Part shown: piece by piece, positions 33,660 through 34,049 of the stretch
Numbering within the stretch: position 1 is the stretch's first letter
How the letters are laid out: each line of letters begins with the position of its first letter
Assembly (NCBI RefSeq): GCF_002854065.1
Contig: NZ_CP024147.1
Source of the DNA: Escherichia coli
GTDB taxonomy: Bacteria > Pseudomonadota > Gammaproteobacteria > Enterobacterales > Enterobacteriaceae
DNA length: 64,000 nt
Direction: 5' to 3' (one strand)
The notes under the pieces: model-generated
What the model saw: the letters and a program-made list of their open reading frames with translations, nothing else
What the model was told of the DNA's origin: nothing
The model's database searches: none
Translations under genes and position numbers: made by a program

Positions 33660-33676
33660 CTAATACTCCGCGCCAT
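33660..33676 (+). promoter_or_regulatory. maoS-like site (CTAATACTCCGCGCCAT) upstream of maoP
   Basis: 17-mer matching my recollection of the maoS site, 35 bp upstream of the maoP start; exact motif recalled, not verified. Confidence 0.5.
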
Positions 33677-33710
33677 AACTAGCTCGGTCAAAGAATTAGG
33701 AGCGTGCAGG

Positions 33711-34049
33711 ATGGCGGAAAGCTTTACGACGACTAATCGATATTTCGACAATAAACATTATCCACGTGGATTCTCTCGTCATGGTGATTTCACCATCAAA
33801 GAGGCACAACTGCTTGAGCGTCATGGTTATGCCTTCAATGAGTTGGATCTTGGCAAACGCGAGCCGGTTACCGAGGAAGAGAAACTCTTCGTAGCAGTAT
33901 GCCGTGGCGAACGTGAGCCAGTGACAGAAGCAGAACGCGTGTGGTCTAAGTATATGACGCGTATTAAGCGTCCAAAACGTTTTCACACCCTTTCCGGCGG
34001 TAAACCGCAGGTTGAAGGTGCTGAAGACTACACCGATTCTGACGATTAA
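33711..34049 (+). CDS. maoP: Macrodomain Ori protein MaoP (YifE)
   Basis: 112-aa ORF ([42 protein letters not shown]...); divergent from hdfR. Confidence 0.85.

Follow-up and report, generated by a model that had tools for sequence, protein, structure and literature searches.

The maoS site of the Ori macrodomain and its conserved surroundings in the hdfR-maoP intergenic region of Escherichia coli

A sequence of 17 nt lies upstream of maoP in the Escherichia coli DNA analysed here, a stretch of 64 kb that is referred to as the window. The question raised by this locus is whether the sequence is the chromosome-structuring site maoS itself or only resembles it, and which constraints act on the site and on its surroundings. 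The cis-acting Macrodomain Ori Sequence (maoS) is defined as exactly CTAATACTCCGCGCCAT, a sequence situated between the genes hdfR and yifE (Valens, Thiel and Boccard 2016, PMC5023128). The gene yifE, renamed maoP, works in cis or trans, and the MaoP/maoS system limits the DNA mobility and the long-range contacts of the Ori macrodomain (PMC5023128). A preliminary description of the window had pointed to this system: it proposed a 'maoS-like' 17-mer 35 bp upstream of the yifE/maoP start, in the hdfR-maoP divergent region and about 22 kb from oriC, as a cis site that restricts, together with MaoP, the contacts of the Ori macrodomain. The role assigned in this way agrees with the one published for K-12 (PMC5023128).

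Position and identity of the 17-nt sequence

The 17-mer occupies positions 33660-33676 on the plus strand and matches the published site exactly, with 0 mismatches. No other match occurs in the window with a tolerance of up to 3 mismatches. A difference from the published maoS had been named beforehand as a possible refutation; the two sequences match, and the wording 'maoS-like' understates the result. The ATG of maoP begins 34 nt past the end of the 17-mer, the gap from the earlier figure of 35 bp being explained by the counting convention. The site lies, as described, inside the hdfR-maoP divergent intergenic region, which spans 33593-33710 by ORF coordinates. The length of this spacer, 118 bp, is the one given by Valens, Thiel and Boccard (PMC5023128). 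Both the spacer and the MaoP protein are identical to those of K-12 MG1655 by sequence comparison, and the locus from hdfR through maoP (1,297 nt) differs from K-12 by 9 substitutions, none of them in the spacer. In the K-12 chromosome (NC_000913.3) maoS has the coordinates 3,948,035-3,948,051. A text search of a literature collection for the exact 17-mer string returned one paper, the one that defines maoS (PMC5023128).

The origin of replication is found in the same window, at 11337-11610, with three AT-rich 13-mers (11359, 11375 and 11391) and DnaA boxes near 11416 and 11596. The distance from oriC to maoS is 22.3 kb, very close to the earlier estimate, which places maoS in the origin-proximal (Ori) region. 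The 1-kb stretch around maoS matches 5,425 of the 5,426 complete E. coli genomes, in which the genes are annotated hdfR, maoP and yifB. The gene order was taken from an annotated 41-kb E. coli stretch that agrees with the window at every position (100%) of this 1-kb query, and runs rbs operon, mdtD, yieP, an rRNA operon (rrnC in K-12), tRNA-Asp, tRNA-Trp, hdfR, maoP, yifB and ilv operon. The rRNA operon is complete (about 27435-32657; 16S, tRNA-Glu, 23S and 5S) and, as mapped from the E. coli and K-12 annotations, about 100 nt separate the end of the rRNA/tRNA run from the 3' end of hdfR.

The gene downstream of the site, maoP (yifE), encodes on the plus strand (33711-34049) a DUF413 protein of 112 aa, the trans-acting partner of maoS. 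The assignment comes from the ORF, from Pfam (PF04219, E = 2.4e-38), from the NCBIfam equivalog NF008251 (score 253.6 bits, cut-off 181) and from RefSeq, in which the gene is annotated maoP. Structure prediction for MaoP gave no recognisable solved fold and no DNA-binding fold. Residues 48-78 (33852-33944) form an internal repeat of two 13-residue units, and two or three DUF413 copies occur in some proteins elsewhere (P0155, 213 aa; P0179, 371 aa). Residues 77-93 of MaoP are a basic segment. In a 2D-gel study MaoP appears only as a soluble log-phase protein, which provides no mechanistic lead. Past the gene, a hairpin with a 9-bp stem (34051-34075), preceded by an A-tract and followed by a U-tract, separates the convergent maoP and yifB. 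Its RNA fold has an energy of -14.5 kcal/mol (z = -4.46; 0 of 200 shuffles as good), and a simple consensus scan missed it. The hairpin probably terminates maoP and also yifB, as a bidirectional intrinsic terminator. The Rfam search of the region returned no RNA family, its sole match being a sub-threshold sRNA placed on this hairpin.

The chance expectation inside one window is no yardstick for a single 17-mer. Identity to the published site and conservation were used instead, and both speak decisively for the sequence. The probability that the 17-mer is maoS itself and its neighbour maoP, as published for the Ori macrodomain of E. coli, is put at about 0.9. The window agrees with the K-12 system (PMC5023128) in all testable points, namely the 17 nt, the spacer, MaoP, the flanking yifB and the proximity of oriC; it represents another E. 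coli strain and shows no difference of system. Both components are already known, from the description of the system in 2016 and from the RefSeq annotation of the gene, and the finding is correct and not new.

Copy number, distribution and conservation

The exact 17-mer was searched in one genome per species, over about 100,000 species and 298 Gb. At least 120 stretches contain it, with one copy in each of those listed, and 119 of the 120 listed matches are hdfR-maoP spacers of Enterobacterales. The geometry of the locus is maintained: the start of hdfR lies 63-68 nt upstream of maoS in 117 of the 120 listed loci (2 others are cut at a contig end), and the start of a MaoP homologue lies 33-43 nt downstream in 115 (4 others are cut in the same way). 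The genera with maoS include Budvicia (Budviciaceae) and Providencia (Morganellaceae), both taxonomy-checked; the remaining genera are taken to belong to the Enterobacteriaceae, Erwiniaceae, Pectobacteriaceae, Yersiniaceae and Hafniaceae. The sole exception among the listed matches is Rhizobium sp. SEMIA4064, where the exact 17-mer has no maoP or hdfR nearby. This is a chance match of the kind expected in 298 Gb.

Within the species, 5,424 of 5,426 complete E. coli genomes contain the 30-mer centred on maoS at 100% identity. The median is one copy per genome, and rare additional copies of the 30-mer mirror extra copies of the whole 1-kb locus. Occurrence of the motif at many other sites had also been set as a possible refutation of the preliminary description. 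maoS is a single-copy site on the chromosome, as seen in the window with up to 3 mismatches, in the at least 120 genome stretches and in the E. coli median, and it is termed 'unique' in the 2017 follow-up paper. Two of the 5,426 genomes are without the exact 30-mer and a few have the locus twice, which may reflect natural variants of maoS or duplications. Plasmid-borne copies were considered and rejected, all 16 records being non-mobilizable and those inspected being mislabelled chromosomes or resembling chromosomal fragments.

The genome loci above were picked via the 17-mer itself, and conservation was retested with two ascertainments independent of it. Three loci were picked by MaoP protein similarity only: those of Leminorella and of a 2.4-Mb symbiont carry the exact site, and that of a 1.39-Mb Pantoea symbiont matches in 16 of 17 positions. 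A metagenome scan was anchored on 22 nt of the conserved block that lies upstream of maoS in the spacer, and yielded 74 distinct regions. The exact 17-mer stands precisely 15 nt after the block in 72 of them. The other two are a region with a single T-to-C change at position 2 and an unrelated chance match to the anchor (L145), with no maoP or hdfR nearby. The natural variants of maoS seen are only two, T17C in Pantoea sp. Nvir (L124, the 1.39-Mb genome) and T2C in the metagenome region (L227), and neither change falls within the -10-like hexamer or the GC-rich core described below.

The third codon positions of maoP served as the neutral yardstick, in the 98 distinct loci of the block-anchored set. 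The mean pairwise identity is 0.9988 for the 17-mer versus 0.50 for the third codon positions. Only 3 of 112 third positions are invariant, and no invariant stretch of the coding sequence exceeds 3 nt. The 17-mer is essentially invariant across the Enterobacterales, although the synonymous sites of maoP are saturated. An alignment of the spacer from eight enterobacteria was already given in the 2016 paper (PMC5023128). Conservation of the spacer as such is not new, and its extent is now documented on a much larger sample.

Outside the order the site is lost from view. At 50% identity the MaoP family divides into 513 clusters, and essentially a single cluster contains the proteins of the Enterobacterales. 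Homologues at 43-55% identity, with Endozoicomonas and Hahella among the named members of their clusters, have other surroundings, either dsbA-DUF413-trmA or the neighbourhood of rmf. At the loci of these homologues that were examined, no hdfR neighbour was found and nothing closer to maoS than 5-6 mismatches.

Architecture of the hdfR-maoP spacer

The divergent gene, hdfR (32753-33592, minus strand), starts with GTG and encodes a LysR-type regulator of 279 aa with the Pfam domains HTH_1 and LysR_substrate. Between the two genes, the alignments reveal a second conserved element, the upstream block at 33611-33644. It consists of ATTTGTCGT, of GATTTAAAT with its palindrome ATTTAAAT (33624-33631), and of TTTTGTTTTACA (33633-33644). 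In 105 distinct sequences GATTTAAAT and TTTTGTTTTACA are invariant or nearly so, with two columns at about 90%. These sequences were selected by the 17-mer and not by the block, so the conservation of the block is not built in by the selection. The gap between block and maoS is fixed at 15 nt in 118 of 119 assessable loci anchored on the block. The sequence of these 15 nt varies (0.83 pairwise identity), and the offset is constant in all related regions examined. In the alignments maoS is the downstream end of a conserved module of 68 nt with fixed spacing (about 33611-33678). The upstream block may be an HdfR site, a set of promoter elements, or a part of a larger natural maoS.

Promoter-like elements run through both parts of this module. 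A -35-like TTTACA (33639-33644, plus strand) forms the end of the upstream block. A -10-like AATACT (33662-33667, plus strand) follows it after 17 nt, inside maoS, and is succeeded there by the GC-rich, discriminator-like CCGCGCC (33668-33674, plus strand), read from the sequence. The two hexamers come from a sigma-70 consensus scan, which gave 1 site against 1.1 expected in shuffled sequence and is not significant alone. Both hexamers and their spacing are conserved across the order, and the gap is fixed in length and free in sequence, which is the pattern expected of a promoter. No transcription start of maoP was found, by gene name and coordinate, in the supplements of genome-wide TSS studies. 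It is somewhat probable, from this arrangement, that maoS also supplies the -10 hexamer of the maoP promoter, its GC-rich discriminator and probably the point at which transcription starts. Such an overlap would couple the occupancy of the site to the expression of maoP. The fixation of all 17 positions across the order could then be understood in part, because the constraints of a binding site and of a promoter would overlap.

A metagenome contig, L126 (bases 150-285), is informative on the two parts of the site. It encodes a MaoP that is 50% identical, a clear HdfR homologue in divergent orientation and, between them, the conserved block TTTTGTTTTAC. In the register of maoS it reads GGGATACTCCCCGAAAA, which matches in 10 of 17 positions; the -10-like core and the spacing are retained and the GC-rich half is lost. 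This pattern points to different constraints on the two halves of maoS.

Several minor elements of the spacer were also inspected. A Shine-Dalgarno region, TTAGGAG (33696-33702, plus strand), stands 8 nt before the maoP ATG and recurs in the aligned loci. GATC is absent from the 118 bp. On the minus strand, a perfect TTGACA (the complement of 33648-33653) is a candidate for the hdfR promoter; it is not conserved in the Morganellaceae, and no convincing -10 hexamer was found at 16-19 nt from it. The inverted repeats GTTATG/CATAAC and CGCCAT/ATGGCG, both pairs of 6 nt, were rejected as chance, other families showing no conservation of them. In the second pair, the last six bases of maoS (CGCCAT, 33671-33676) are complementary to the start of maoP (ATGGCG, 33711-33716), and this pairing is probably fortuitous because the maoP start of the Morganellaceae reads ATGGCA.

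Action of maoS and comparison with known systems

The action of maoS was established genetically in K-12 (PMC5023128). [quoted passage not shown] The 17 nt placed at an ectopic position constrain the mobility of the nearby DNA when MaoP is present. When maoP is lost, the Ori markers are freed, Ori-Right inversions become possible and the segregation of the origin is delayed; deletion of hdfR leaves the markers more constrained (PMC5023128). These cis-action genetics were published for K-12, to which the spacer and the MaoP of the window are identical in sequence. maoS was called only the 'likely' target by the authors, whose paper contains no ChIP and no purified-protein experiment, and who offered tracking or loop extrusion as hypotheses only (PMC5023128). 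According to the 2017 follow-up paper, maoS organises the Ori macrodomain 'by an unknown mechanism', and a second maoS in the non-structured right region did not extend the Ori interactions. The latter result implies that a simple spreading from the site is an incomplete explanation. The literature search found no report of direct binding of MaoP to maoS and no later mechanistic literature on the system.

The reading slightly favoured here is that maoS is recognised in a sequence-specific manner, most likely by MaoP itself or by MaoP together with a partner. The constraint would be nucleated or loaded at this one point and would propagate from there in cis along the DNA. The product of the divergent gene, HdfR, probably opposes MaoP/maoS by way of the conserved upstream block, in keeping with the phenotype of the hdfR deletion.

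Three other readings have to be weighed against it. A 17-mer that resembles maoS by accident and is functionless in this genome has a negligible probability. Exact 17-mers do turn up fortuitously in huge collections, as in the one Rhizobium case, but here the spacer, the genes and the distances are the same as in K-12, the spacer being identical to it, and the sequence is invariant in all but two of the complete E. coli genomes and throughout the Enterobacterales. The identity to K-12 and the invariance at both levels rule this reading out. The 17-mer might instead be primarily an operator of HdfR, with an indirect dependence on MaoP. LysR-type regulators usually bind in their own divergent promoter region, hdfR stands next to maoP in a fixed arrangement in 117 of the 120 listed loci, and the mobility of markers is altered when hdfR is deleted. 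The direction of the change is the wrong one, however: deletion of hdfR tightens the markers, whereas deletion of the intergenic region or of maoP releases them, from which it follows that HdfR is not needed for maoS action. Moreover, the 17-mer lacks the dyad symmetry of a LysR box, and the palindrome ATTTAAAT belongs to the upstream block, outside maoS. An HdfR operator in the place of maoS is thus most improbable.

The last reading is that the 17-mer is conserved mainly as the core promoter of maoP, the mobility effect passing through RNA polymerase or transcription, with MaoP acting on the polymerase rather than on DNA. It draws on the correct spacing of the two hexamers, invariant across the order over an intervening sequence that varies, and on the composition of the site, which is AT-rich and then GC-rich like a typical -10 and discriminator and is not palindromic. 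MaoP has no DNA-binding fold, and the 2016 authors themselves presume a yifE promoter in the intergenic region (PMC5023128). On the other hand, the bare 17 nt, with neither the -35 nor the upstream block, constrained an ectopic marker (PMC5023128). The fixation of 17 out of 17 positions in an order with saturated synonymous sites is unusual for core promoters, and L126 keeps the -10-like core and not the GC-rich half. A function as promoter only is consequently regarded as unlikely.

A recognition site for MaoP may also be part of a larger element. It is conceivable, though doubtful, that the natural element is the 68-nt module at 33611-33678, in which maoS doubles as the -10, discriminator and start of the maoP promoter and HdfR acts at the upstream block. 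In such a module the occupancy of maoS would be coupled to the transcription of maoP, with HdfR as an antagonist. If true, this coupling would explain the 17 fixed positions and give an experimental handle on the mechanism.

The comparison with better-known systems shows how the locus is placed among them. MatP/matS, the organiser of the Ter macrodomain, is like MaoP/maoS a site-specific protein/DNA system that defines a macrodomain and constrains mobility, and both are among the proteins described as co-evolving with Dam. MatP binds 23 matS sites over 800 kb, with binding demonstrated according to the cited papers, whereas maoS is single and not palindromic, MaoP has no recognisable fold and maoS is only its putative target. 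ParB/parS resembles maoS in its one or few origin-proximal cis sites and in an effect that extends along the flanking DNA. On the other hand, parS has the symmetry of a palindrome and the DNA binding of ParB is well characterised, and the 112-aa DUF413 protein MaoP has no similarity to ParB. The 2016 authors suggested that enterobacterial factors including MaoP may partly compensate for the missing ParABS (PMC5023128). Finally, divergent promoters of LysR regulators and their targets are like hdfR-maoP in the short spacer of fixed geometry and in the conserved AT-rich palindrome; they differ in that the regulation of maoP by HdfR is only putative, the reported link being the opposite mobility phenotype.

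The MaoP/maoS system is still of interest, given that one site of 17 bp constrains several hundred kilobases of chromosome. The comparative data sharpen the question of its mechanism modestly, with a partner protein that has no known fold and relatives outside the order that have no site. Selection acts on every base of maoS throughout a bacterial order, and the site stands in fixed register with promoter-like hexamers and with another block that is invariant. Together these points make a case for testing the promoter and the chromosome-structuring roles apart.
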